DNA from: a virus
Virus record (IMG/VR): IMGVR_UViG_3300005821_000002
Span: 32,487 to 96,486 of that record
Direction: 5' to 3' (one strand)
Length of the DNA stretch: 64,000 bases
Below are positions 5,672 to 27,297 of the stretch, one piece after another (position 1 is the stretch's first letter; each line of letters begins with the position of its first letter). The position numbers and the translations under genes are program-made. The notes beneath the pieces were generated by a model. That model was not told the origin of the DNA. It did no database searches and saw only the letters and a program-made list of their open reading frames with translations.

Positions 5672-5700
5672 AAAAAAGCGAAGTCATTTAGCTTCGCTTT
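5672..5700 (-). terminator. rho-independent terminator closing the tRNA array
   Basis: AAAGCGAAG-CTAAATGA-CTTCGCTTTTTT. Confidence 0.85.
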
Positions 5701-5701
5701 A

Positions 5702-5776
5702 GGTGCTTGCAGAGGGGCTCGAACCCCCGACCTTCGGTTTAAAAGACCGTTGCTCTTCCGGCTGAGCTATGCAAGC
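5702..5776 (-). tRNA. tRNA-Lys(UUU)
   Basis: Cloverleaf, loop CT-TTT-AA; ends ACC-T. Confidence 0.93.
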
Positions 5777-6246
5777 TAAAAAACTAATTGAGTACCTATC
5801 TCTAGGTCCATTGTATACCAAGCGCTGTAGAACCATGGTGCCTTCTTCCCCGTAAAGTCTATTCTACGTGATGGGAAGATAACTTCCACACCACTCAACT
5901 GTGCTCTACATTCTTTTGCACCTAACTTTGTTATAGGTAGCAACATGCACCAAGGTTTTCCCAACTCATTTGCTCTACGTAGAAACTTCTTAGCTATAGA
6001 GAATGGTGGGTTGGTTACAATGATATCATAGGATGGTGGTTCATCAACAAGAAAATCTCCATCCCATTCTACTACATCGTAACCACCTGCGATAAGGTGT
6101 GCTATCAACACACCAGAACCAGGTGCACAATCCCACAGCTTTTTGTCTGTGGGTAGATACGGAACCAATACCTCCAAAGCCTCTGGAGGAGTCCATATAT
6201 CGTCGTAACTTCCTCTTTTACTGTAATCCTTCAATACTTCTAACAT
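5776..6246 (-). CDS. small DNA adenine methyltransferase-like protein
   Basis: WDCAPGSG SAM motif; DIIVTNPPF. Confidence 0.8.
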   Translation of the reverse strand: MLEVLKDYSKRGSYDDIWTPPEALEVLVPYLPTDKKLWDCAPGSGVLIAHLIAGGYDVVEWDGDFLVDEPPSYDIIVTNPPFSIAKKFLRRANELGKPWCMLLPITKLGAKECRAQLSGVEVIFPSRRIDFTGKKAPWFYSAWYTMDLEIGTQLVF

Positions 6247-6322
6247 GGTGCCACCGGTAGGACTCGAACCTACAACCTTTGGTTTAAGAGACCACTGCTC
6301 TCACCCGTTGAGCTACGGAGGC
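6246..6322 (-). tRNA. tRNA-Lys(CUU)
   Basis: Loop CT-CTT-AA; encoded CCA. Confidence 0.93.
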
Positions 6323-6326
6323 ATAA

Positions 6327-6415
6327 GACGGCGACGTTCCCACAACGCCTTCGTGCAACCTAAGTGAGTGGCCTACTCACAGCTACACAGTTGGATTCGA
6401 ACCAACATCTCCGTC
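6327..6415 (-). ncRNA. circularly permuted tRNA-like RNA (Y-RNA/YrlA-like topology)
   Basis: Closing stem GACGG/CCGTC, T-arm GTTGG-TTCGAAT-CCAAC at the 5' side, capped acceptor-like stem, then D-arm-like hairpin. Confidence 0.6.
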
Positions 6416-6416
6416 A

Positions 6417-6492
6417 GGTGGGTCTGGCTGGGCTCGAACCAGCGACCTCTTTCTTGTAAGGAAAGCGCTCTAACCAACTGAGCTACACACCC
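6417..6492 (-). tRNA. tRNA-Val(UAC)
   Basis: CTTTC-CTTACAA-GAAAG; ends ACC-T. Confidence 0.94.
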
Positions 6493-6493
6493 A

Positions 6494-6685
6494 TTATCCT
6501 GTTAATCTACCTTTACCATCATTCTGATAGAAACCCTTACCCTTAAATACGACGTTAGGAGGATTGAACACTCTCCTAATACTTATTTTACCACATTCAG
6601 GGCATTTTGTCAAGCCCAAATCCAAGTGTTCTTCGGATATGAACTCATACAAACAATCTTCACATTTGTAATCATATATTCCCAT
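6494..6685 (-). CDS. FmdB-family zinc-ribbon protein
   Basis: YDYKCEDC...CPECG...VFKGKGFY. Confidence 0.85.
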   Translation of the reverse strand: MGIYDYKCEDCLYEFISEEHLDLGLTKCPECGKISIRRVFNPPNVVFKGKGFYQNDGKGRLTG

Positions 6686-6696
6686 AGTTACCTCAA

Positions 6697-6770
6697 GGAG
6701 CGAGTAGGTGGATTTGAACCACCGACATTCTGCTTGGAAGGCAGACGTTCTACCACTGAACTATACCCGC
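6697..6770 (-). tRNA. tRNA-Gly(UCC)
   Basis: TCTGC-CTTCCAA-GCAGA; U73; ends TCC-T. Confidence 0.94.
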
Positions 6771-6773
6771 TAA

Positions 6774-6846
6774 GGTGGGAACACAGGGAATCGAACCCTG
6801 CTCGTCGGCTTGAAAGGCCGGTGTCCTGCCGATAGACGATGCTCCC
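6774..6846 (-). tRNA. tRNA-Glu(UUC)
   Basis: Loop CT-TTC-AA; ends ACC-T. Confidence 0.92.
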
Positions 6847-7029
6847 TTATGAAACCATACTCTGAATGCTATCTAATAAGTCATTCAGTTCATCGTACTT
6901 GTCTATTAAACTTTCTACAGCCTCATATGCATTTTTATCATCTACTATAAAATCTACTGGTGAGCCTGGTCCATTTAATAAATCTACGATATCTTGTAGT
7001 TCTGCTTCTATACTTATACCCATAATCAT
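6847..7029 (-). CDS. small acidic hypothetical protein
   Basis: AGGAG RBS; fills inter-tRNA gap. Confidence 0.6.
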   Translation of the reverse strand: MIMGISIEAELQDIVDLLNGPGSPVDFIVDDKNAYEAVESLIDKYDELNDLLDSIQSMVS

Positions 7030-7039
7030 ACTCCTTTTA

Positions 7040-7113
7040 GGTGATTCTACGGAGATTTGAACTCCGGTCTGTACTTTGAGAGAGTACTGTCCTAACCACT
7101 AGACGATAGAACC
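7040..7113 (-). tRNA. tRNA-Glu(CUC)
   Basis: GTACT-CTCTCAA-AGTAC; ends ACC-T. Confidence 0.92.
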
Positions 7114-7115
7114 AA

Positions 7116-7189
7116 GGTAGGCCCCCCACGAATTGAACGTGGCTCCTTCCCCTTATAAGAGGGATGCTTCCCCGATCAGCTTGAGGCCC
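7116..7189 (-). tRNA. tRNA-Ile(UAU)
   Basis: TCCCT-CTTATAA-GGGGA; ends ACC-T. Confidence 0.85.
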
Positions 7190-7457
7190 ATCGTGTTTCA
7201 TTATTTTCTACTCGTTTTATCCAATTACAATTTGCACAAAGTAGTTGATAGTCTTCACTTTCTCCCCTACAAATTCTACGAGCTATATAATCGGAACTAT
7301 GAGCAAGTATTTCTTTACCACCGCCACCTTTTATATGATCTATCTGTAATGCTCTTGGATCGGAAAATCCACATCTTGTGCATATACCACCCAAAAGCTC
7401 TATCGCTTTCTGTCTATTTTTTCGACGGTATTCTCTACCCCATTGTTTTTTATTCAT
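7176..7457 (-). CDS. HNH endonuclease (free-standing, homing type)
   Basis: CTRCG...LQIDHI...YQLLCANCN; start moved to ATG just after tRNA-Ile(GAU). Confidence 0.85.
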   Translation of the reverse strand: MNKKQWGREYRRKNRQKAIELLGGICTRCGFSDPRALQIDHIKGGGGKEILAHSSDYIARRICRGESEDYQLLCANCNWIKRVENNETRWASS

Positions 7458-7458
7458 A

Positions 7459-7533
7459 GGTGGACCAAAATGGAGTCGAACCATTGGCCTTCCCCTTATC
7501 AGAGGGATGCTCTAACCACTGAGCTACTGGTCC
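7459..7533 (-). tRNA. tRNA-Ile(GAU)
   Basis: TCCCT-CTGATAA-GGGGA; ends ACC-T. Confidence 0.94.
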
Positions 7534-7944
7534 TTATATTACATGCCATTCAGCTTTCCTTGCTCTCTTAGCTGTCCAACATCCTCCAGACTTTATATGA
7601 TCTGAAGTGTGACAGTGATAACAGTAATCAAACTTCATTCCTTTATATCCTTCTGGATAATCTGCTACCACAATACAATGAACAATGTCAGATGCTCTAG
7701 CTATCTTTAGATTTCTCTGCTTAAAACCACCTTCCCACCGTGGTATAGCTGGAAGATAAATCTCTTTTTCCAATCCTAGTTTATTGGCCTCTTCCTCAGC
7801 CCATATATCTATACCACCAAGATGACATCCACCACTGACAAGAATATCATCAGGAGACAATAGAGAACGTATTATTTCTCTTGCCTTTGCCTCTGTTTCA
7901 GGCGTAAACTTTCTTGCCTCATGACCAACTATTCCTACTCTCAT
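7534..7944 (-). CDS. SLOG-superfamily (DprA/YspA-like) nucleotide-binding protein
   Basis: VGIVG...LVSGGCHLGGIDIWAE...RNLKIA...SGG. Confidence 0.7.
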   Translation of the reverse strand: MRVGIVGHEARKFTPETEAKAREIIRSLLSPDDILVSGGCHLGGIDIWAEEEANKLGLEKEIYLPAIPRWEGGFKQRNLKIARASDIVHCIVVADYPEGYKGMKFDYCYHCHTSDHIKSGGCWTAKRARKAEWHVI

Positions 7945-7957
7945 TGTATCTCCTTAA

Positions 7958-8031
7958 GGCACGGGTACTCGGATTCGAACCAAGACCATAGGCTTAGAAC
8001 ACCTTTATGCTATCCTTTACACCATACCCGC
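7958..8031 (-). tRNA. tRNA-Arg(UCU)
   Basis: Loop GT-TCT-AA; A20 and G73; ends GCC-T. Confidence 0.85.
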
Positions 8032-8034
8032 TTA

Positions 8035-8108
8035 GGTGTGTCCAGTGGGGATTGAACCCACGACCCTCTGCTCTTCAGACAGATGCTCTACCACTGAGCT
8101 ACAGACAC
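8035..8108 (-). tRNA. tRNA-Phe(GAA)
   Basis: TCTGT-CTGAAGA-GCAGA; ends ACC-T. Confidence 0.94.
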
Positions 8109-8116
8109 ATAAAACC

Positions 8117-8187
8117 GAGGGCTTATGCTTATCATCTAGAATGTGACCACTCAGTTTACTGCTGGAAGTCAGACAGCAGAAGCCCTC
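8117..8187 (-). ncRNA. orphan structured RNA
   Basis: Terminal stem GAGGGCTT/AAGCCCTC plus CTGCTG/CAGCAG hairpin. Confidence 0.4.
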
Positions 8188-8188
8188 T

Positions 8189-8274
8189 TGGTGCCAACAG
8201 CAGGGATCGAACCTGCACTCCCGAAGGAAACTGGTTTTAAGCCAGTCGTGTCTGCCAAATTCCACCATGTCGGC
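8189..8274 (-). tRNA. tRNA-Leu(UAA)
   Basis: ACTGG-CTTAAAA-CCAGT; long variable arm; CCA. Confidence 0.95.
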
Positions 8275-8276
8275 AT

Positions 8277-8365
8277 AAGGTGAGAAGGGTTTACTCTGAG
8301 TATTCGTCTGACTATCGGACTTTCCCCTAACAGGTATAGTCTCCTGCGTAAAGCGTTCTCACCTT
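8277..8365 (-). ncRNA. orphan structured RNA with potential pseudoknot
   Basis: 10-bp terminal stem AAGGTGAGAA/TTCTCACCTT, TTTAC/GTAAA, GCAGG/CCTGT, GACTAT/ATAGTC. Confidence 0.5.
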
Positions 8366-8367
8366 AA

Positions 8368-8443
8368 GGTAGCGGGGAGGGGATTCGAACCCCTGGTTTC
8401 CAGCTTATGAGGCTAGTGACTTGGGCCGCTAGTCTACCCCGCA
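8368..8443 (-). tRNA. tRNA-Met(CAU), initiator-like
   Basis: CAT anticodon; U1xU72 mismatch; A11-U24; ends ACC-T. Confidence 0.9.
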
Positions 8444-8501
8444 ATGATGGACACCTACATCGAACCACAAGGAGCGACCCTGCTTACGTTTCAGTGTCCA
8501 A

Positions 8502-8577
8502 GGTCGGAATGACAGGATTTGAACCTGTGGCCCCTCGGACCCAAACCGAGTGCTCTTCCAAGCTGAGCTACACTCCG
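8502..8577 (-). tRNA. tRNA-Pro(UGG)
   Basis: CTCGG-TTTGGGT-CCGAG; ends ACC-T. Confidence 0.95.
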
Positions 8578-8681
8578 ATGTACTTTTTTGATAGAGCAGA
8601 AAGACATAATAAAAACTGCTTGGGCCTAACTCATACAAGTCAGGGTTCCACCACTTGTTTTTTAGAGAAACAAGAAACTCA

Positions 8682-8754
8682 GGTGGAGCTTCAGAGGATC
8701 GAACTCTGATAACAGCATTGCAAGTGCTGGGTAATACCGTTATACGAAAGCCCC
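8682..8754 (-). tRNA. tRNA-Ala(UGC)
   Basis: G3-U70; CAGCA-CTTGCAA-TGCTG; ends ACC-T. Confidence 0.94.
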
Positions 8755-8757
8755 AAA

Positions 8758-8841
8758 GGTACCGAAGGTGAGAGTCGAACTCACAAGCCCGTGGGCACTG
8801 ACTTCTAAGGCCAGCGTGTTTGCCATTTTCACCACTTCGGC
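8758..8841 (-). tRNA. tRNA-Leu(UAG)
   Basis: CTGGC-CTTAGAA-GTCAG; long variable arm; ends ACC-T. Confidence 0.94.
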
Positions 8842-8844
8842 ATG

Positions 8845-8922
8845 TTGAGAACTAGGGTGCACCACGGAATCTAACCGTCTCTGCTAGGCTGTCGCCCACT
8901 AACAAGTCGTGCTAGTTCTCAA
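8845..8922 (-). ncRNA. orphan structured RNA with T-loop-like hairpin
   Basis: 11-bp terminal stem TTGAGAACTAG/CTAGTTCTCAA; ACGG-TTAGATT-CCGT. Confidence 0.5.
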
Positions 8923-8996
8923 GGTGGATGTTAGAAGAATCGAACTTCTCTCCGTCGGTTTACAGCCGAGTGCCGTCCCCAGACGACCCAACATCC
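8923..8996 (-). tRNA. tRNA-Tyr(GUA), non-canonical (short variable loop)
   Basis: 7-bp acceptor, TCGG-CTGTAAA-CCGA, T-arm AGAAG-TTCGATT-CTTCT; ends ACC-T. Confidence 0.8.
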
Positions 8997-9008
8997 AATG
9001 TTTTCCTT

Positions 9009-9037
9009 ATTATATCACATATTACTAGAAATGTCAA
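9009..9037 (-). promoter_or_regulatory. consensus sigma70 promoter inside tRNA array
   Basis: TTGACA-17-TATAAT with extended -10 TG. Confidence 0.9.
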
Positions 9038-9064
9038 GCCCAATATTAGTGCCATATCATTCCT

Positions 9065-9315
9065 TGGTGGAGATGGGGGGAGTTGAACCCCCGTCCAAAT
9101 AGTCTTGGTTCACATGTTACTGGCGTTCCGTTTACTGTCGGTCAGTCTTACTGGGTGTAACTAGGTGTAGCTTCTACCGCTACTGGGAGACTGAATAAAG
9201 TTTCAGCCAGACTCACTCTGCTAAAGAGTGCTGATGCTAAACTATTATCGTTTGCATTTGTGTTAGGGTGCCAGAATGCTTAGCGTCCTCTATCTGTCGA
9301 AGCCATTTCATCCCC
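9065..9315 (-). ncRNA. ssrA: tmRNA (compact, ~251 nt)
   Basis: 5' GGGGATGAAATGGCTTCGAC; G3-U acceptor pair; 3' GGACGGGGGTTCAACTCCCCCCATCTCCACCA; resume codon GCA AAC GAT (AND...). Confidence 0.93.
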
Positions 9316-9317
9316 AA

Positions 9318-9391
9318 GGAGCACCTAAGAGGATTCGAACCTCCAACTCTTGGTCCGTAGCCAAGCGGTTTATCCGTTAGCCTACAGGTGC
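9318..9391 (-). tRNA. tRNA-Arg(ACG)
   Basis: CTTGG-CTACGGA-CCAAG; ends TCC-T. Confidence 0.94.
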
Positions 9392-9394
9392 TTA

Positions 9395-9470
9395 GGGGCC
9401 CATGATGAGAATCGAACTCATAACCTAGCGATTACAAAACGCTTGCTCTGCCTAATTGAGCTACACGGGC
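9395..9470 (-). tRNA. tRNA-Thr(UGU)
   Basis: Loop TT-TGT-AA; ends CCC-T. Confidence 0.92.
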
Positions 9471-9473
9471 TTA

Positions 9474-9560
9474 GGCGGAATGTGTAGGATTCGAACCTAC
9501 GTGGGTGTTACCCCAACTCCCTTAGCAGGGGAGCACTTTAAACCACTCAGTCAACATTCC
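9474..9560 (-). tRNA. tRNA-Ser(GCU)
   Basis: CTCCC-CTGCTAA-GGGAG; long variable arm; ends GCC-T. Confidence 0.95.
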
Positions 9561-9568
9561 GTAATACT

Positions 9569-9802
9569 CTATCCAGTTGAACGAACAAATGTAATTACAT
9601 TATCCGGTATATCAGCTGGATGTTCATACGATTTATTAGAGCGTGTGCGGTGAGTGAAAGGGAAGAACCCAGTGTCACTCCTACCGATACTCACTCCTCT
9701 AAACTTACCACCCTGTTGTGGATATGTACCTTCTCCCACATCAAGGTTATCTGGTGCTTTTTCTACTAGTTTTACACCACCAACAAGACTTTCTTCTGTC
9801 AT
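9569..9802 (-). CDS. hypothetical protein
   Basis: Fills gap; YTHRxRSxxY-like motif. Confidence 0.55.
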   Translation of the reverse strand: MTEESLVGGVKLVEKAPDNLDVGEGTYPQQGGKFRGVSIGRSDTGFFPFTHRTRSNKSYEHPADIPDNVITFVRSTG

Positions 9803-9805
9803 ATA

Positions 9806-10015
9806 TCACCAATTCTTCCAGTTACATATACTTTCCCAATGTAATAATCCTCTACGATGAGGGTCTCTCCAAGCACGACGACGAGCTTTACTCAAACGTC
9901 GTTTGTAGTAACGACCCTCTCCTCTACTACCCCATCTACAACAAATGCTTCCATTTACTACTTGAATTTTCTTACCAAACTCTTTCCATGTTCTACGGTA
10001 ATTCTCTTTATGCAT
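9806..10015 (-). CDS. small Arg/Lys/Trp-rich protein (69 aa)
   Basis: Start moved to ATG at 10015, directly after the RNase P RNA 3' end. Confidence 0.55.
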   Translation of the reverse strand: MHKENYRRTWKEFGKKIQVVNGSICCRWGSRGEGRYYKRRLSKARRRAWRDPHRRGLLHWESICNWKNW

Positions 10016-10210
10016 GACAACTCCGTAACCAGGATTCTGTTTTATCCCTACATCCATCTATGCCACAACCACACCCTTAGCCCTGCTCACCAGCTAGGTA
10101 AATTTGTGTTGCTCCCTCGGTAGTATAACGGGTTTCCCCTTCCACCTTAAGCAGAGGAGTCCTGAGTTTCCTCTGACGGCATGAAGCCATCAGCGTAGGG
10201 TCAAGTTGTC
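10016..10210 (-). ncRNA. rnpB: miniature RNase P RNA (catalytic domain, S-domain largely deleted)
   Basis: CR-I-like GAGGAAACTCAGGACTCC, GGAGCAA, CR-IV-like TAGATGGAT, CR-V-like AACAGAATCCTGGTTA; P1-P7 and P15-P17 pairable. Confidence 0.88.
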
Positions 10211-10211
10211 A

Positions 10212-10286
10212 TGGAGGCAAGAGTGGGAATCGAACCCACCACTCGACGTTTTGCAGACGCCACCCTAACCAATCGGGATTCTCGCC
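10212..10286 (-). tRNA. tRNA-Cys(GCA)
   Basis: GGCGT-CTGCAAA-ACGTC; U73; CCA. Confidence 0.92.
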
Positions 10287-10952
10287 CTATTCAAAGTACG
10301 GTAGCCAATAATATAATACTTTATCAGCATATACAGGCCCACCAAAGTATAAACAAACATCGGCATTCAAGCTTGTCCAACCACAATTGTATGCAGCTAA
10401 AGCTCTGTGCATATCCTTCTCAGGATTTTCTTCTTCATTGTTAATGTTAGCATTTAACATATACATGCCCTGCCAAATATTCCATCTTGGTTGCCAAAGA
10501 TATTCTTCTGCCAGTGTCCACGGCTTCACAGCTATCTGCATAAGACCGATGGTACTATACCCATCATCCGACATCTCATTTGGGTTGCAAGCACTTTCCT
10601 GAGCCATAACAGCAAGTACAATATTAGGATCAATGGGAAACTCATCATACCACCCTTCAACAAGGGGTCGATAATATTCACATAACCTTACTACAATTTC
10701 AGCTGTTACTTCTTCTCCGGTTGGTCGTGGAGTTGATGTTTTACTCGGCACAACCGTTGGTACTTTTTCTGGTGTTGGTATTGATAGTGGTTCTACTATT
10801 CGCGGCGGATACTCTGTTGAAGTTACCACCGGTGTCGGAGTTATTGTGGGAAGTTCAGGTTCAGGTATATCATTAGGTATACTATATATCCCACACATAA
10901 CGCTGATTACTAGCATAACCACAAGAAAATTCTTGCTAGATGATTTCAGCAA
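10287..10952 (-). CDS. membrane-anchored lytic transglycosylase (SLT domain)
   Basis: N-terminal TM, Pro/Thr linker, AVMAQES, GLMQI, ALAAYNCG. Confidence 0.9.
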   Translation of the reverse strand: MLKSSSKNFLVVMLVISVMCGIYSIPNDIPEPELPTITPTPVVTSTEYPPRIVEPLSIPTPEKVPTVVPSKTSTPRPTGEEVTAEIVVRLCEYYRPLVEGWYDEFPIDPNIVLAVMAQESACNPNEMSDDGYSTIGLMQIAVKPWTLAEEYLWQPRWNIWQGMYMLNANINNEEENPEKDMHRALAAYNCGWTSLNADVCLYFGGPVYADKVLYYWLPYFE

Positions 10953-10990
10953 ATATTCCCCCTATATTATATTGTCCGTACCATACCAAA

Positions 10991-11080
10991 GGCGGAGAGT
11001 GCAGGGGTCAAACCTGCAAGGCAGTTACGCTCGGCGGGTTTCAAATCCGCTGCCGTCGTCAACTATCGGCTTGACTCTCC
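10991..11080 (-). tRNA. tRNA-Ser(UGA)
   Basis: Loop TT-TGA-AA; long variable arm; G73; ends GCC-T. Confidence 0.87.
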
Positions 11081-11120
11081 GAAATGTGGGGAAGTTAGGT
11101 TCCGACCTCCCTTCCCAATA

Positions 11121-11204
11121 GGTGCCGATAACAGGAGTCGAACCTGTACGCTGTTAGGCGGTTGCTTTTGAGGCAACTGTGTCTACCTCTTCCACCATAT
11201 CGGC
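11121..11204 (-). tRNA. tRNA-Leu(CAA)
   Basis: GTTGC-CTCAAAA-GCAAC; ends ACC-T. Confidence 0.94.
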
Positions 11205-11296
11205 AATTGTCTTACCGTACCCATAGGCAATACTAGGCTTGTAGGCCCTATGGGTATTGCTCAATCATGAGGTATATAGTCATGAAAGAGTGCCTA

Positions 11297-11374
11297 GGCG
11301 GTCTTGAAGGGATTTGAACCCTCGATCTCTTGCTTGACAGGCAAGCGTGTTAGGCCGGACTACACCACAAGACC
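11297..11374 (-). tRNA. tRNA-Asp(GUC)
   Basis: CTTGC-CTGTCAA-GCAAG; G73; ends GCC-T. Confidence 0.95.
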
Positions 11375-11378
11375 ATAA

Positions 11379-11530
11379 GATGTATCATAGCTGGTTTCCC
11401 CACCCAGCACCCGTACAAACCTGACCATTTTTCGGTTTTTTAGTCTGACCGATACAGACTTGTGACCTTTCTGAAAAGGTTGTCAGGATGAATTCTAAGC
11501 CCAAGTGTTTCAGACACTTTATGATACATC
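11379..11530 (-). ncRNA. orphan multibranch structured RNA (~152 nt)
   Basis: 11-bp terminal stem GATGTATCATA/TATGATACATC enclosing five internal helices. Confidence 0.6.
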
Positions 11531-11531
11531 A

Positions 11532-11607
11532 TGGGGTGTCCAGAGGGGTTCGAACCCTCGAATGTGGATTCACAGTCCAGTGTTTTTCCGACTAAACTAT
11601 GGACACC
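11532..11607 (-). tRNA. tRNA-His(GUG)
   Basis: G-1:C73 pair; loop CT-GTG-AA; CCA. Confidence 0.93.
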
Positions 11608-11612
11608 ATGTA

Positions 11613-11776
11613 TGTACCGGTACCCCTCTTACTCACCGTATTACGATGATATAACTACCTCTGGAGACCCAGTAGGGGCAGGTAGGCGGTATTTTCTCTT
11701 CCTTATTCCTAGCTGGTCTTAATCAGAATAAGGCGTAGTCTCCCACGTTCTGTCCATGCCAGCGGACACCGGTACA
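11613..11776 (-). ncRNA. orphan pseudoknotted structured RNA (~164 nt)
   Basis: 9-bp terminal stem TGTACCGGT/ACCGGTACA plus several internal complementary pairs. Confidence 0.55.
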
Positions 11777-11777
11777 A

Positions 11778-11850
11778 GGTAGCTAAGGGAGGATTCGAAC
11801 CGCCATCCTAGGCTTCAAAGGCCCATGTCCTGCCGTTAGACGACTTAGCT
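11778..11850 (-). tRNA. tRNA-Gln(UUG)
   Basis: TGGGC-CTTTGAA-GCCTA; ends ACC-T. Confidence 0.92.
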
Positions 11851-11853
11851 ATA

Positions 11854-11926
11854 GGTTGTAGAGGAAGGATTCGAACCTCCATTGACTGATTCAGAGTCAG
11901 CAGTACTGCCGTTATACTACTCTACA
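11854..11926 (-). tRNA. tRNA-Gln(CUG)
   Basis: GCTGA-CTCTGAA-TCAGT; ends ACC-T. Confidence 0.92.
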
Positions 11927-11927
11927 A

Positions 11928-12076
11928 GGTAAAGGCGTATTCCAACCCCTTTATTCCGCCTATAAGTCCTGTCTGTATTCACAGCGTTTTCCTTGAAACT
12001 AGACCTGACTAGAATTCCAAGGACGTAAGGGGTACAGGACTTGGCTCATAACCTTTCCCCACTCTTTCGAGTGAGA
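11928..12076 (-). ncRNA. orphan structured RNA (~150 nt) ending in ACC-T
   Basis: GAAA hairpin, AAGTCCTGT/ACAGGACTT, CCTTGGAA/TTTCAAGG, AGGCG/CGCCT, ACCCCTT/AAGGGGT. Confidence 0.55.
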
Positions 12077-12077
12077 A

Positions 12078-12150
12078 GGCACGGGATGAAGGATTCGAAC
12101 CTCCTACAGTAACGTTTTGGAGACGCACTCGCTCCCAAGCTGTATCCCGC
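12078..12150 (-). tRNA. tRNA-Trp(CCA), non-canonical reduced D-arm
   Basis: Loop CT-CCA-AA; G73; D-arm only GCT-TGGG-AGC; ends GCC-T. Confidence 0.8.
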
Positions 12151-12155
12151 ATATA

Positions 12156-12230
12156 GGCAGGCAAGACAGGATTCGAACCTGTAACCTTCTCCTTAACAGG
12201 GAGTTGCTCTGCCGATTGAGCTACTCGCCT
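12156..12230 (-). tRNA. tRNA-Asn(GUU)
   Basis: Loop CT-GTT-AA; ends GCC-T. Confidence 0.93.
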
Positions 12231-12240
12231 ATATGTACAC

Positions 12241-12269
12241 ATTATACCACAAAATCTACACTTTGTCAA
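12241..12269 (-). promoter_or_regulatory. consensus sigma70 promoter heading the tRNA array
   Basis: TTGACA-17-TATAAT with TG extension. Confidence 0.9.
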
Positions 12270-23494: not shown

Positions 23495-23523
23495 ATTATA
23501 CCACACTTTTAACCATTTGTCAA
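23495..23523 (-). promoter_or_regulatory. leftward sigma70 promoter
   Basis: TTGACA-17-TATAAT with TG extension. Confidence 0.9.
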
Positions 23524-23554
23524 GTACCAATTTTAAGATTGATGTGGTCCAGAC

Positions 23555-23583
23555 TTGACAAAAGTACCGAAATGTGGTATAAT
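23555..23583 (+). promoter_or_regulatory. rightward sigma70 promoter
   Basis: TTGACAAAAGTACCGAAATGTGGTATAAT. Confidence 0.9.
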
Positions 23584-23601
23584 AGATACACGGAGGATAA
23601 G

Positions 23602-23793
23602 ATGACATCAGATGATAAATTGAACCTGTTCAGAAAATATTTACAACGTCGGCTATCTCACGTTAAGATGTTACTCACTGTAGCTGAGTCCGCTAATCAA
23701 GACTCGAAAGTTATAGAAATATTTCGTCTTCAACGTGATAACTTAACTGACATTATACACGATTTTGATATGCTTGTCAAGTCCGATGGCTAG
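23602..23793 (+). CDS. hypothetical protein
   Basis: GGAGG RBS before ATG 23602. Confidence 0.6.
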   Translation: MTSDDKLNLFRKYLQRRLSHVKMLLTVAESANQDSKVIEIFRLQRDNLTDIIHDFDMLVKSDG

Positions 23794-25334: not shown

Positions 25335-25720
25335 ATCCAAAACCTATTCCACATCCAATAGTTATTAAAAGTGCAAAGATTAAAGAAACGCATGAATATG
25401 CACAGCTAGAGAGACTAAAGAAACTATGGACTCTATTCTTTTGTTCAGAGTGCAAATATAAGTGGAATTGTTGTGATACCTGTAAAGAAAGTGACGGATA
25501 CCTTAGATATAAAATTGAAGGGGAACATTATCCTGAATATTTTTTAGAAGATGGCAAGGGGTGTAAATTACCCCTTGAACTTAAATCTGTAACTTGCATC
25601 ACTTATATATGTAAAGAAAAAAGAGCAACAATGGATAAGACTTACTTAGATGGACTGGATGCATTAATAGAAGTGATGAGAAAGCTAGAGTTTGATTTGT
25701 ATTTGATGGAGATTAAGTAA
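25322..25720 (+). CDS. Cys-rich hypothetical protein
   Basis: CxxC, CCxxC, GC...CxxxxC. Confidence 0.55.
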   Translation: MEGINPKPIPHPIVIKSAKIKETHEYAQLERLKKLWTLFFCSECKYKWNCCDTCKESDGYLRYKIEGEHYPEYFLEDGKGCKLPLELKSVTCITYICKEKRATMDKTYLDGLDALIEVMRKLEFDLYLMEIK

Positions 25721-27297
25721 TGGCGATCAATGTAGACGGCACCACCAACATGACCGACGTTTCCATGTGTGACTCTACTACAGGTTGGGCTGGTGGTATG
25801 TCACAGTTTGCTCTTGATACTGGAGTTTATGTTCAAGGCACTGGTTCACTTTCTGGCTGGATAAACGCAACCACTAGTGCGACCGAATATTATGCTATTA
25901 CTTCTGTAGATATGTCTGGTGGCGACCATATTTATGTATGGATGTTTTGCTCTGGCGTAGTAGACACACAAGCTCTTGGTGGATATAGAGTTGTTTTGTA
26001 CAGTGGTGCAGATTATATTAACAATTTTGCGACTTTCTACGTTGGTGGAAACGATACTCATGGTACTGGTTGGCAATTGATGTGTGTTGATGCAAGTGCT
26101 TCTCCAGACTTGGAAACAGGAACATTTGACAATACTGATGTTATAGCTGTCGGAGTAGCTTTCAAAACACTAACTGCCGCTATCAGTAAGGGTAAAGAGT
26201 ACATCAACAACTGTTATTGGGATGCAGTTCGTTATGGAACTGGATTGATAATTACTTCTGGTGCAACGGATGATATTGACTACGAACAAATTTATGCGGT
26301 GGATAATAACAATACCTATAAGTATGGAGTTATCCAAAAAGCCTACAGTGCTTATGTGCAAACAGGAGAGCTTACGCTTGGTGGAACTGGCACAGAAACA
26401 ATAGACTTTATAATGGAAAACGATGTTATTCTTTTCCCTTCAAATGAATATGTTGATGCTGATTTCTATTCTATTTTGCCTTTGGGAAATACTACTAATC
26501 CAACGTATATTGACCTCTCTGGCTCATACCTAAAGTCAGCTGGTGCAGAAAAGTTTGTATTTGATATGTCAGGTGCAAATATTAACACTTTTGTCATGGA
26601 TGGATGTACTCTAGATAACGCAGGAGTTTGTACGTTTACTACTGGACAGACAATAACAAATAATGTTTTTGCTACTTGTGGATTAGTTACTCCAGCAGCT
26701 GCTACATTTACTGGAAACAAGATAGTAAATTCAAATGTTTCATCGGCTATGCTTTATCCAACAACGGATAACACTGCCGAATTAGAATTTATTTCTGATG
26801 GGACAGGACATGCTATTCTTATTAGTAGCACAGGAACATATACCTTTGATGAGCATACCTTCGATGGGTATGCTTCTACAGACGGTTCAACAGGAAATGA
26901 GTGTGTCTATAATAACTCAGGTGGTTCGGTAACTATAAATATTATTAATGGTGGAGATACTCCAACCATTATGAATGGTACGAGTGCTTCAACTACAGTA
27001 AATAATGCTGTTGACATTACCATTCACGTTATAGATGAGGATGGAAATAATATCGAGGATGCTCAAGTAGCGGTTTATCAAACATCAGGTGATACTGAAT
27101 TGATGAATGAAGATACATTATCAACAGGAATAGCTACGGAGACATTCAACTTTGTAAGTGATACAGCAATTTACTGGAGAGTTAGAAAGTCTAGTACAGG
27201 TTCGACAAGGTATTTTCCAAGGAATGGTACCGGAACAATAACATCTGCCGGATTTTCAGCTACAATTACTTTGGCAGAAGATACAATAATTCAATAA
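25720..27297 (+). CDS. acidic Thr/Gly-rich beta protein with beta-helix-like region (putative virion protein)
   Basis: Composition and repeats; C-terminal Ig/prealbumin-like domain. Confidence 0.55.
   Translation: MAINVDGTTNMTDVSMCDSTTGWAGGMSQFALDTGVYVQGTGSLSGWINATTSATEYYAITSVDMSGGDHIYVWMFCSGVVDTQALGGYRVVLYSGADYINNFATFYVGGNDTHGTGWQLMCVDASASPDLETGTFDNTDVIAVGVAFKTLTAAISKGKEYINNCYWDAVRYGTGLIITSGATDDIDYEQIYAVDNNNTYKYGVIQKAYSAYVQTGELTLGGTGTETIDFIMENDVILFPSNEYVDADFYSILPLGNTTNPTYIDLSGSYLKSAGAEKFVFDMSGANINTFVMDGCTLDNAGVCTFTTGQTITNNVFATCGLVTPAAATFTGNKIVNSNVSSAMLYPTTDNTAELEFISDGTGHAILISSTGTYTFDEHTFDGYASTDGSTGNECVYNNSGGSVTINIINGGDTPTIMNGTSASTTVNNAVDITIHVIDEDGNNIEDAQVAVYQTSGDTELMNEDTLSTGIATETFNFVSDTAIYWRVRKSSTGSTRYFPRNGTGTITSAGFSATITLAEDTIIQ

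Follow-up and report, generated by a model that had tools for sequence, protein, structure and literature searches.

The stretch of DNA analyzed here, which is called the window in what follows, has 64,000 nucleotides and comprises bases 32487-96486 of a 96,486-bp virus record of IMG/VR (IMGVR_UViG_3300005821_000002). From 12269 down to 5675, over about 6.6 kb, it carries an array of 27 firm tRNA genes and a marginal one, a transfer-messenger RNA (tmRNA), an RNase P RNA of miniature size and eight small protein genes, and all of these features lie on the minus strand. The phage, whose genome of 96.5 kb has 104-bp direct terminal repeats, is an uncultured phage of marine sediment and of lytic type; near-identical DNA is present in marine-sediment and subsurface metagenomes. 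Megablast against 50,697 deposited phages gave no match to the window, distant blastn against deposited phages gave matches only of tRNA size, and a search of IMG/VR with the lytic transglycosylase (SLT) and primase proteins of the phage found no close relatives. The single match of a 525-aa open reading frame (ORF) at 25720-27297 is to an uncultured virus, with 28% identity.

As a preliminary description of this DNA had stated, the array is framed by two perfect sigma70 promoters and one terminator. Both promoters agree with TTGACA-17-TATAAT at 12 of 12 positions and have the TG extension in addition. The -10 box of the first one, promoter P1 (12241-12269), is followed after 10 nt by the first tRNA, and thus the leader is about 4 nt long; the other one, promoter P2 (9009-9037), is internal. 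The intrinsic terminator (5700-5675) is a 9-bp stem followed by a T run, and the promoter of the next unit comes right after it, at 5669-5641. Perfect promoters of the same type are found eight times in the window against an expectation of 0.03, and they are real and the normal promoter type of this phage. No terminator was found in the stretch between the tmRNA and P2, and therefore the array is regarded as one operon with an internal promoter; from the promoters and the terminator, we infer that the whole cluster is co-transcribed. Two more sites of this kind were seen. A promoter-like site at 6585-6613, inside the ORF of a zinc-ribbon protein, agrees at 11 of 12 positions, has the TG extension and may be a third internal promoter. 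At 23495-23780, three perfect consensus promoters are located within 290 bp on both strands, where gene orientation and GC skew switch, and this group is probably a divergent early control region.

The miniature RNase P RNA

The region 10010-10212 encodes an RNA of 203 nt that has the catalytic domain of RNase P RNA only. It is aligned end to end with the class A model of Rfam (RF00010) at 58.9 bits (E 2.5e-16), and two of its homologues score 61.0 and 59.7 bits. The gathering score of the model, 100, is not reached, and by Rfam criteria the RNA is not a class A member. The alignment retains P1-P5, GAGGAAACUC, AUAGAUGGAUG and ACAGAAUCC, with the specificity domain and P18 deleted. Helix P1 is formed by 10212-10204 with 10022-10014, P2 by 10200-10195 with 10051-10046, P3 by a hairpin at 10194-10173, P4 within 10173-10161 and 10040-10025, P5 by 10159-10156 with 10115-10112, and the P6 pseudoknot by 10154-10150 with 10087-10083. 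These elements, together with P15, CR-I (GAGGAAA.UC), J18/2 (AGAU..AUG), CR-V (ACAGAA.CC), the bulged U of P4 and the GGU loop (10091-10089), are the same as in bacterial class A RNase P RNA, such as E. coli M1 encoded by rnpB. On the other hand, class A RNAs are about 370 nt long, while in the phage RNA P18 is gone and the specificity domain P7-P14, which includes CR-II and CR-III and reads the tRNA elbow, is absent, so that a 28-nt stub of two helices (10146-10119) stands where about 140 positions of the model are missing. Also unlike class A, the RNA is encoded by a phage within a tRNA array.

Pattern scans built on the P4 strands, run on viral and metagenome contigs, brought the family to 13 members. 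The 12 homologues are L002 (also sampled as L121), L122, L135-L142, L172 and L221, the last two having been met among loci fetched for another purpose; their contigs measure 12-416 kb, and nearly all of the RNAs lie within or beside tRNA arrays with up to 34 tRNAs. In an alignment of 11 sequences, 34 helix pairs were counted (P1 was seen by eye and is outside this count), and 93.6% of the cells are paired, while only 35-44% are paired if the partner strand is slid. Double changes occur in 24 of the 34 pairs, supporting P2, P3, P5 and the distal helices, and not one of 500 shuffles reaches any of these measures. In P4, AAC(U)CAGG faces CCUGGUU; all seven pairs are standard in 11/11 sequences and two of them covary, the third pair switching between C-G and G-C in step in every sequence. 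The P6 pseudoknot also covaries, for example CUGCU/AGCAG against GAAUC/GAUUC, and P15 is present as well. GAGGAAA, ACAGAA and the bulged U of P4 are each kept in 11/11, and the GGU loop is kept, too. Judged from this exact core and its compensatory changes, the miniature RNA is a genuine derivative of RNase P RNA under selection. The RNase P RNA that had been named in the preliminary description is confirmed as an RNase P-like RNA below the gathering score.

With a spacing-restricted pattern, only a chance match inside a gene was obtained from 185,579 species-representative prokaryote genomes. The Pedobacter locus L134 was dismissed as a chance match of the RNase P pattern, as were L123 and L124, and a loose form of the pattern gave 119 chance matches. 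A blastn search with three of the miniature RNAs against deposited phages, a method of low sensitivity, gave no match, and a full-text literature search found no paper on a phage RNase P RNA. Some members of the family deserve a remark of their own. The smallest one, of about 190 nt (L140:483-672), is directly flanked by tRNA-Glu and tRNA-Arg, does not have the stub and carries an extra hairpin ahead of the 3′ strand of P4. In L122, also a tRNA array with a miniature RNase P RNA, positions 485-553 give a sub-threshold match to the YrlA family (34.3 bits, E 5e-4). At L137:3246-3318, about 5 kb from the miniature RNase P RNA, ARAGORN calls a ‘Pyl’ tRNA with the CTA anticodon of an amber suppressor, and this phage may recode a stop codon.

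How is this RNA supposed to leave the precursor? In 8 of the 13 loci, no more than 7 nt separate it from a tRNA, in three of them on both sides, which would fit a release by tRNA punctuation. In the window, its 5′ end is located directly at the CCA of tRNA-Cys. The opposite end is arranged differently: the GGAG and the ATG of a basic 69-aa ORF are inside the 3′ strand of P1 (10013-10022), and therefore folding of the ribozyme and translation of this ORF should be mutually exclusive. The 69-aa protein was considered as a substitute for RnpA, the protein partner, and was set aside, having no Pfam or PHROG match; moreover, no ORF follows the RNase P RNA in L002, L139 and L140, where it is flanked by tRNAs.

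The spacers and their closing stems

The preliminary description also supposed that most of the longer non-coding gaps are RNA modules closed by stems at the edges of the flanking tRNAs, and that about eight of them are orphan structured RNAs. This is wrong for the eight longest gaps (183-666 nt), each of which is filled end to end by a minus-strand ORF. What remains are 11 non-coding spacers of 58-171 nt, designated A to K in the order of transcription. Terminal stems of 8-13 contiguous pairs are found in 6 of the 11. Spacer B (11607-11777; 171 nt, multibranched, z −2.5) has the longest one, 13 bp formed by 11776-11764 with 11625-11613. Stems of 11 bp close spacer C (11375-11531; 157 nt, z −3.4, with −6.4 for the antisense) by 11530-11520 with 11389-11379, spacer F (8842-8922; 81 nt) by 8922-8912 with 8855-8845, and spacer I (8275-8367; 93 nt), and stems of 8 bp close spacer H (8444-8501), which is a hairpin of 58 nt (z −3.3), and spacer J (8109-8188; 80 nt). 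The other gaps do not fit the expectation of stem-closed modules. Spacer A (11927-12077; 151 nt, z −3.9) contains three hairpins and spacer D (11205-11296; 92 nt, z −2.7) two, both having no closing stem; spacer E (10953-11120, z −0.9), which holds the marginal tRNA-Ser(UGA), does not have one, either, and the AT-rich spacer G (8578-8681; 104 nt, z −1.1) is likewise not closed by a stem and shows no significant fold. Spacer K (6323-6416; 94 nt, z −3.0) is a weak case, its closing stem of 5 bp being not significant (P 0.34). Fold z-scores of A, B, C, D, F, H, I, J and K are all between −2.5 and −3.9.

The closing stems by far exceed what chance would give. Six gaps have a stem of at least 7 bp while 0.51 are expected, the maximum in 2000 dinucleotide shuffles being four, and among control windows of the same genome 3.8% reach 7 bp. 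In 6/6 cases the stem starts 0-1 nt after the upstream tRNA. The stems are different from one another in sequence and are nearly all Watson-Crick, with 3 G.U among 67 pairs. No paralogue of any spacer was found in the genome, each module being single-copy, and an Rfam scan of spacers A-K matched no family; weak YrlA matches in the array only overlap true tRNAs and none falls in a spacer. An origin from decayed tRNAs was examined for A-D and F-K with relaxed ARAGORN (-ps80), and this idea was rejected, as no tRNA-like fold appeared. RNase III usually requires substrates of roughly two helical turns, and a role of the stems as its stalk is unlikely, 8-13 bp being too short. It is to be noted that a canonical T-arm, GTTGG TTCGAAT CCAAC, is present in spacer K together with the string TGTGTAGCT, which resembles the 5′ part of the neighboring tRNA-Val; this spacer looks like rearranged tRNA pieces.

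Are the spacers conserved? Each was compared by nhmmer with 91 other phage loci, including L002, L122, L135-L142 and 80 viral loci that share the 136-aa gene described below, with E-values accepted up to 1-10 or 0.01, and no homologue was found, with one exception, a part of E that is tRNA-like; by contrast, these loci readily yield tRNAs, tmRNA and the miniature RNase P RNA. Close relatives are available as contigs from read archives only. A cold-seep run, X10, gave a syntenic contig of 11.5 kb, and the pieces listed from it have about 90-95% identity. The parts of the operon that align in X10 are the tmRNA, the tRNAs, the majority of the ORFs, the region of the RNase P RNA and four spacers, A, C, G and H; A is retained with small indels, and C with a 3-nt indel in its A-rich linker. 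At 6278-6416 the relative has 46 letters for 137, just enough for the part of the tRNA that is unaligned, and therefore spacer K is missing; at 8724-8922 it has 119 letters for 197, as many as the tRNAs alone require, and therefore spacer F is missing, too. At 8294-8366, 24 letters stand for 71; they are similar to module I at its 5′ end, which means that the strands of its stem are kept and about 47 nt of the interior are lost. In X11, from a vent run, 5 nt are found in place of all of module I, and H is skipped, as it is in one contig of X8. Taken together, these contigs suggest that modules are gained, lost and hollowed out among close relatives, while in one informative case the stem appears to persist. 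Among the sequencing runs listed for this DNA, none is an RNA run. Two libraries labeled as metatranscriptomic contain 25-45% of the sequence words but carry a flag of being probably DNA; their contigs, of low depth, extend over ORFs as well as spacers and run across the borders of units, and they do not bear on expression or processing. Structural conservation of the spacers was thus not found as far as it could be tested, which is one of the two outcomes that the preliminary description had named as speaking against its own reading, and the idea of about eight cargo RNAs gains no support, as the modules have no Rfam family, paralogue or homologue and are absent from relatives. In appearance, the spacers are closer to filler for processing or insulation than to RNA genes that are conserved.

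tRNAs, tmRNA and protein genes of the array

ARAGORN finds 27 tRNAs between 12230 and 5702, which represent all 20 amino acids, and every tRNA gene of the genome is inside the operon, there being no second tRNA locus. The Rfam tRNA model (RF00005) recovers 25 of them above its cut-off; tRNA-Cys reaches 41 bits in an E-value scan, and tRNA-Trp is called by ARAGORN alone. The preliminary count of 28 tRNAs for 20 amino acids holds except that the 28th, a probable type-II tRNA-Ser(UGA) within spacer E (10991-11080), is marginal: it is called at a relaxed threshold (-ps90) only, has an A.C mismatch at the base of the anticodon stem and scores 26 bits with the tRNA-Sec model of Rfam, and its region has weak similarity to long-arm tRNAs in L122, L136 and L140.

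From the first promoter onward, the tRNAs come as follows: tRNA-Asn(GTT) and tRNA-Trp(CCA), 5 nt apart (12078-12230); tRNA-Gln(CTG) and tRNA-Gln(TTG), 3 nt apart (11778-11926); tRNA-His(GTG) (11532-11606); tRNA-Asp(GTC) (11297-11374); tRNA-Leu(CAA) (11121-11204); tRNA-Cys(GCA), which is adjoined at its CCA end by helix P1 of the RNase P RNA (10212-10286); tRNA-Ser(GCT), tRNA-Thr(TGT) and tRNA-Arg(ACG), 3 nt apart (9318-9560); and, after the tmRNA, tRNA-Tyr(GTA) (8923-8996), tRNA-Leu(TAG) and tRNA-Ala(TGC) (8682-8841), tRNA-Pro(TGG) (8502-8577), tRNA-Met(CAT) (8368-8443), tRNA-Leu(TAA) (8189-8274), tRNA-Phe(GAA) and tRNA-Arg(TCT) (7958-8108), tRNA-Ile(GAT) (7459-7533), tRNA-Ile(TAT) and tRNA-Glu(CTC) (7040-7189), tRNA-Glu(TTC) and tRNA-Gly(TCC) (6697-6846), tRNA-Val(TAC) (6417-6492), tRNA-Lys(CTT) (6246-6322), whose final A also serves as the first letter of the ATG of the ORF behind it, and tRNA-Lys(TTT) (5702-5776) as the final unit. 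Neighboring units are frequently 0-5 nt apart, in agreement with the 1-5 nt noticed before, and the trailers between a tRNA and the next unit, 1-5 nt long, consist of A and U only. The 3′ ends read N-C-C followed by T in 23 of the 27 tRNAs and likewise in the marginal tRNA-Ser(UGA), and CCA is encoded only in tRNA-His, tRNA-Cys, tRNA-Leu(TAA) and tRNA-Lys(CTT). The only tRNA with a CAU anticodon (8368-8443) has a U1.U72 mismatch on top of its acceptor stem, and could be an initiator, an elongator or a lysidine-type tRNA-Ile.

The tmRNA, which had been recognized in the preliminary description as well, has 251 nt (9065-9315), begins 2 nt past tRNA-Arg and scores 77.8 bits with RF00023, above the gathering score of 47. 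Its acceptor and T-arm ends are aligned to the model with high posterior probability, although ARAGORN misses it. The tag frame (9150-9255) gives, from the GCA at 9255, 35 residues, ANDNSLASALFSRVSLAETLFSLPVAVEATPSYTQ, which end in YTQ and not in the usual Ala-Ala. Genes for SmpB, RnpA, a CCA-adding enzyme and Ro60 (TROVE) were searched for in the phage genome and none was found. Therefore the tmRNA must use the SmpB of the host, and, because the tRNAs end in NCC-T, their maturation needs exonucleases and the CCA-adding enzyme of the host. The operon is thus not self-contained, contrary to what had been thought.

The ORFs in the gaps make the transcript a mixed polycistron of RNAs and mRNAs, as in other phage tRNA regions, and all of them have family or homologue support except for one of 60 aa. 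The longest, of 221 aa (10287-10952, TTG start), encodes a lytic transglycosylase (SLT; PF01464, 6e-11) with an N-terminal hydrophobic segment; among its 35 homologues, P0002-P0014 are 47-76% identical, and the alignment of the homologues led only to distant loci that have no tRNAs. The very basic 69-aa ORF (9806-10015) has 15 homologues of 53-76% identity, and a 77-aa ORF (9569-9802) matches phrog_3666 (7e-10). The 136-aa product of 7534-7944 is Rossmann-like with a C-terminal Cys/His cluster and has 931 homologues, which some sources name DprA/Smf-like; this gene is common to the 80 viral loci fetched. A 96.7-kb phage contig, L143, carries at 10001-10405 a copy with 79% identical DNA and is otherwise unrelated to the region, and therefore the gene appears to be mobile between phages. 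A 93-aa HNH endonuclease (7176-7457; phrog_2255, 4e-13) overlaps the first 14 nt of tRNA-Ile(TAT), and the relatives X10 and X11 have 68 letters in place of 7122-7455, that is, the HNH gene together with this tRNA, as expected of a mobile homing endonuclease. The ORF of 60 aa (6847-7029), preceded by AAGGAG, matches no family, and the indels in the relative, 6 nt in total, stay inside its frame. The last two encode an FmdB-type zinc ribbon of 63 aa (6494-6685; PF09723, 5e-9) and a DNA methyltransferase-like protein of 156 aa with an NPPF motif (5776-6246; phrog_799, 3e-27).

How the array may be processed

By its layout, the array is a sigma70-driven polycistron; its tRNAs, tmRNA and RNase P RNA are tightly packed units that tRNA end-processing would have to separate. 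We consider that this operon is probably the single translation-support unit of the phage, and that its stem-closed spacers are most likely cis-acting structures with dispensable interiors. Host RNA polymerase would produce one or two long precursors, with the first tRNA about 4-6 nt from the start site. RNase P would then cut at the 5′ edge of each tRNA and of the tmRNA, and the enzyme would be that of the host, reinforced or replaced by the miniature RNase P RNA of the phage, probably together with host RnpA. Since the units are 0-5 nt apart, each cut would leave the upstream tRNA with a trailer of 1-5 nt, A/U only, past the encoded N-C-C; host exonucleases would trim it and the host CCA-adding enzyme would add the final A. 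The same two reactions would free the spacers that have closing stems, namely B, C, F, H, I and J, and perhaps also K. Their closing stems most likely act in cis, keeping a spacer folded on itself so as to avoid mispairing with neighboring tRNAs and fixing the position of processing sites, while the interiors would be fast-evolving and dispensable. As a side effect, the released spacers might be by-products resistant to exonucleases, like RNAC and RNAD of T4. These two (species 1 and 2) are small RNAs from the tRNA region of T4 whose role is unknown (PMC3014915; PMC9697503), and they are the closest precedent for the stem-closed spacers. They are likened here by description only: both cases are small non-tRNA RNAs of a phage tRNA region, while here there are six to eight candidate modules with long terminal stems, known from sequence alone.

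Several points speak against this explanation. The processing sites, the activity of the miniature RNase P RNA and the accumulation of spacer RNAs are all things we infer from the DNA. Perfect stems of 11-13 bp seem to exceed what simple insulation would need. Spacers A and C are kept in X10, so some interiors may be under selection, and the comparison with the relatives consists of letter counts on the contig pieces listed, not of sequence alignments. The 3′ end of the miniature RNase P RNA overlaps the start of an ORF and no tRNA adjoins it, and therefore tRNA punctuation alone does not explain its release. In nine other phage arrays, 5 of 26 gaps are closed by stems of at least 7 bp, where 1.1 would be expected, and the longest stems do not exceed 9 bp; the closing-stem feature is unusually strong in the array of the window.

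In the view of the preliminary description, the modules would be cargo; they might then act in trans, for example as decoys for host nucleases, anti-defence RNAs or modulators of translation, and the array would be the cassette that expresses and releases them. Highly non-random terminal stems placed exactly at tRNA ends, multibranch folds with z from −2.5 to −3.9 and the persistence of A and C in a relative are all in line with such cargo, and presence or absence among close relatives would suit accessory anti-defence genes as well; besides, phage tRNA clusters do give rise to stable RNAs, as is clear from the example of RNAC and RNAD (PMC3014915). Nevertheless we regard it as unlikely, as no module has a homologue in the 91 phage loci or an Rfam family, each being unique and single-copy, and of module I nothing but the stem is left in one relative, so that selection would seem to act on the stem and not on the interior. 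The phage also has no partner protein such as Ro60. YrlA Y RNAs, which are bound by Ro60 (RF02553; PMC4201824), are stem-closed with tRNA-like parts and are sometimes phage-borne, and spacer K has a T-arm, but no spacer matches YrlA. That absence or presence of whole modules could also be read at the level of DNA, the stems being inverted repeats left by recombination, small mobile elements or decayed cassettes of homing endonucleases. Their nearly pure Watson-Crick pairing would then be natural, the antisense of C, I and J folds equally well or better, and a freestanding HNH gene, itself missing from relatives, is in the array. We give little credit to this idea: as every repeat has a different sequence and is single-copy, there is no multi-copy element family, the register of 0-1 nt after the CC(T) of a tRNA in 6/6 cases makes sense for RNA ends, and in A, B, F, H and K the fold of the sense strand is the better one. 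On balance, the evidence on the spacers leans to cis-acting, replaceable structure over cargo.

As for the miniature RNase P RNA, it might be a decoy or regulator that, for example, titrates host RnpA or prevents host RNase P from acting, a role formerly suggested for the poxvirus RNase P-like RNA. P18 is lost, as is all of the specificity domain, and a gene for RnpA was not found in the phage; moreover, the camelpox (orthopoxvirus) RNase P-like RNA, which is virus-encoded and the nearest viral precedent, showed no activity in vitro (PMC3001073). That RNA belongs to a eukaryotic virus and bears a loose resemblance, while the phage family keeps the exact bacterial core among tRNA substrates. 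A decoy is very improbable in our view: the catalytic core is nucleotide-exact in 11 aligned sequences, P4 and P6 covary and the GGU loop is kept, none of which a mere protein sponge would need, and the RNA sits among its would-be substrates in arrays of up to 34 tRNAs. A bolder extension of the processing scheme is that the cassette resolves itself. Having lost the domain that measures the tRNA elbow, the RNA could cut any helix with a short single-stranded leader, and therefore it might cut the modules as minihelix substrates, some of the released RNAs acting in trans. Stems of 11-13 bp, close to the 12-bp stack of acceptor and T-arm and placed one nt after the CC of a tRNA, fit this, which we hold to be rather improbable as a whole. 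If true, one ribozyme would set the 5′ end of each unit and, within 1-5 nt, the 3′ end of the preceding one, and would also free small RNAs that resist exonucleases and whose set varies from lineage to lineage.

Few ribozymes are universal, and RNase P RNA is among them; the view has been that its bacterial forms depend on both domains in vivo. A phage family that has only the catalytic half, clearly under purifying and compensatory selection, would be a natural minimal RNase P. Arrays of Gordonia phages likewise have many tRNAs and a tmRNA clustered with small ORFs and HNH genes, and long atypical tags; that of the window covers 20 amino acids in 6.6 kb, is the sole tRNA locus and contains an RNase P RNA in addition. 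The operon offers a compact sigma70-driven model for how around 30 structured RNAs and eight mRNAs are resolved from one polycistron, and its stem-closed spacers bear on the purpose of ‘extra’ phage RNAs such as RNAC and RNAD, which the T4 literature leaves open (PMC3014915). The family also suggests that phages with many tRNAs bring along part of the processing machinery for them.

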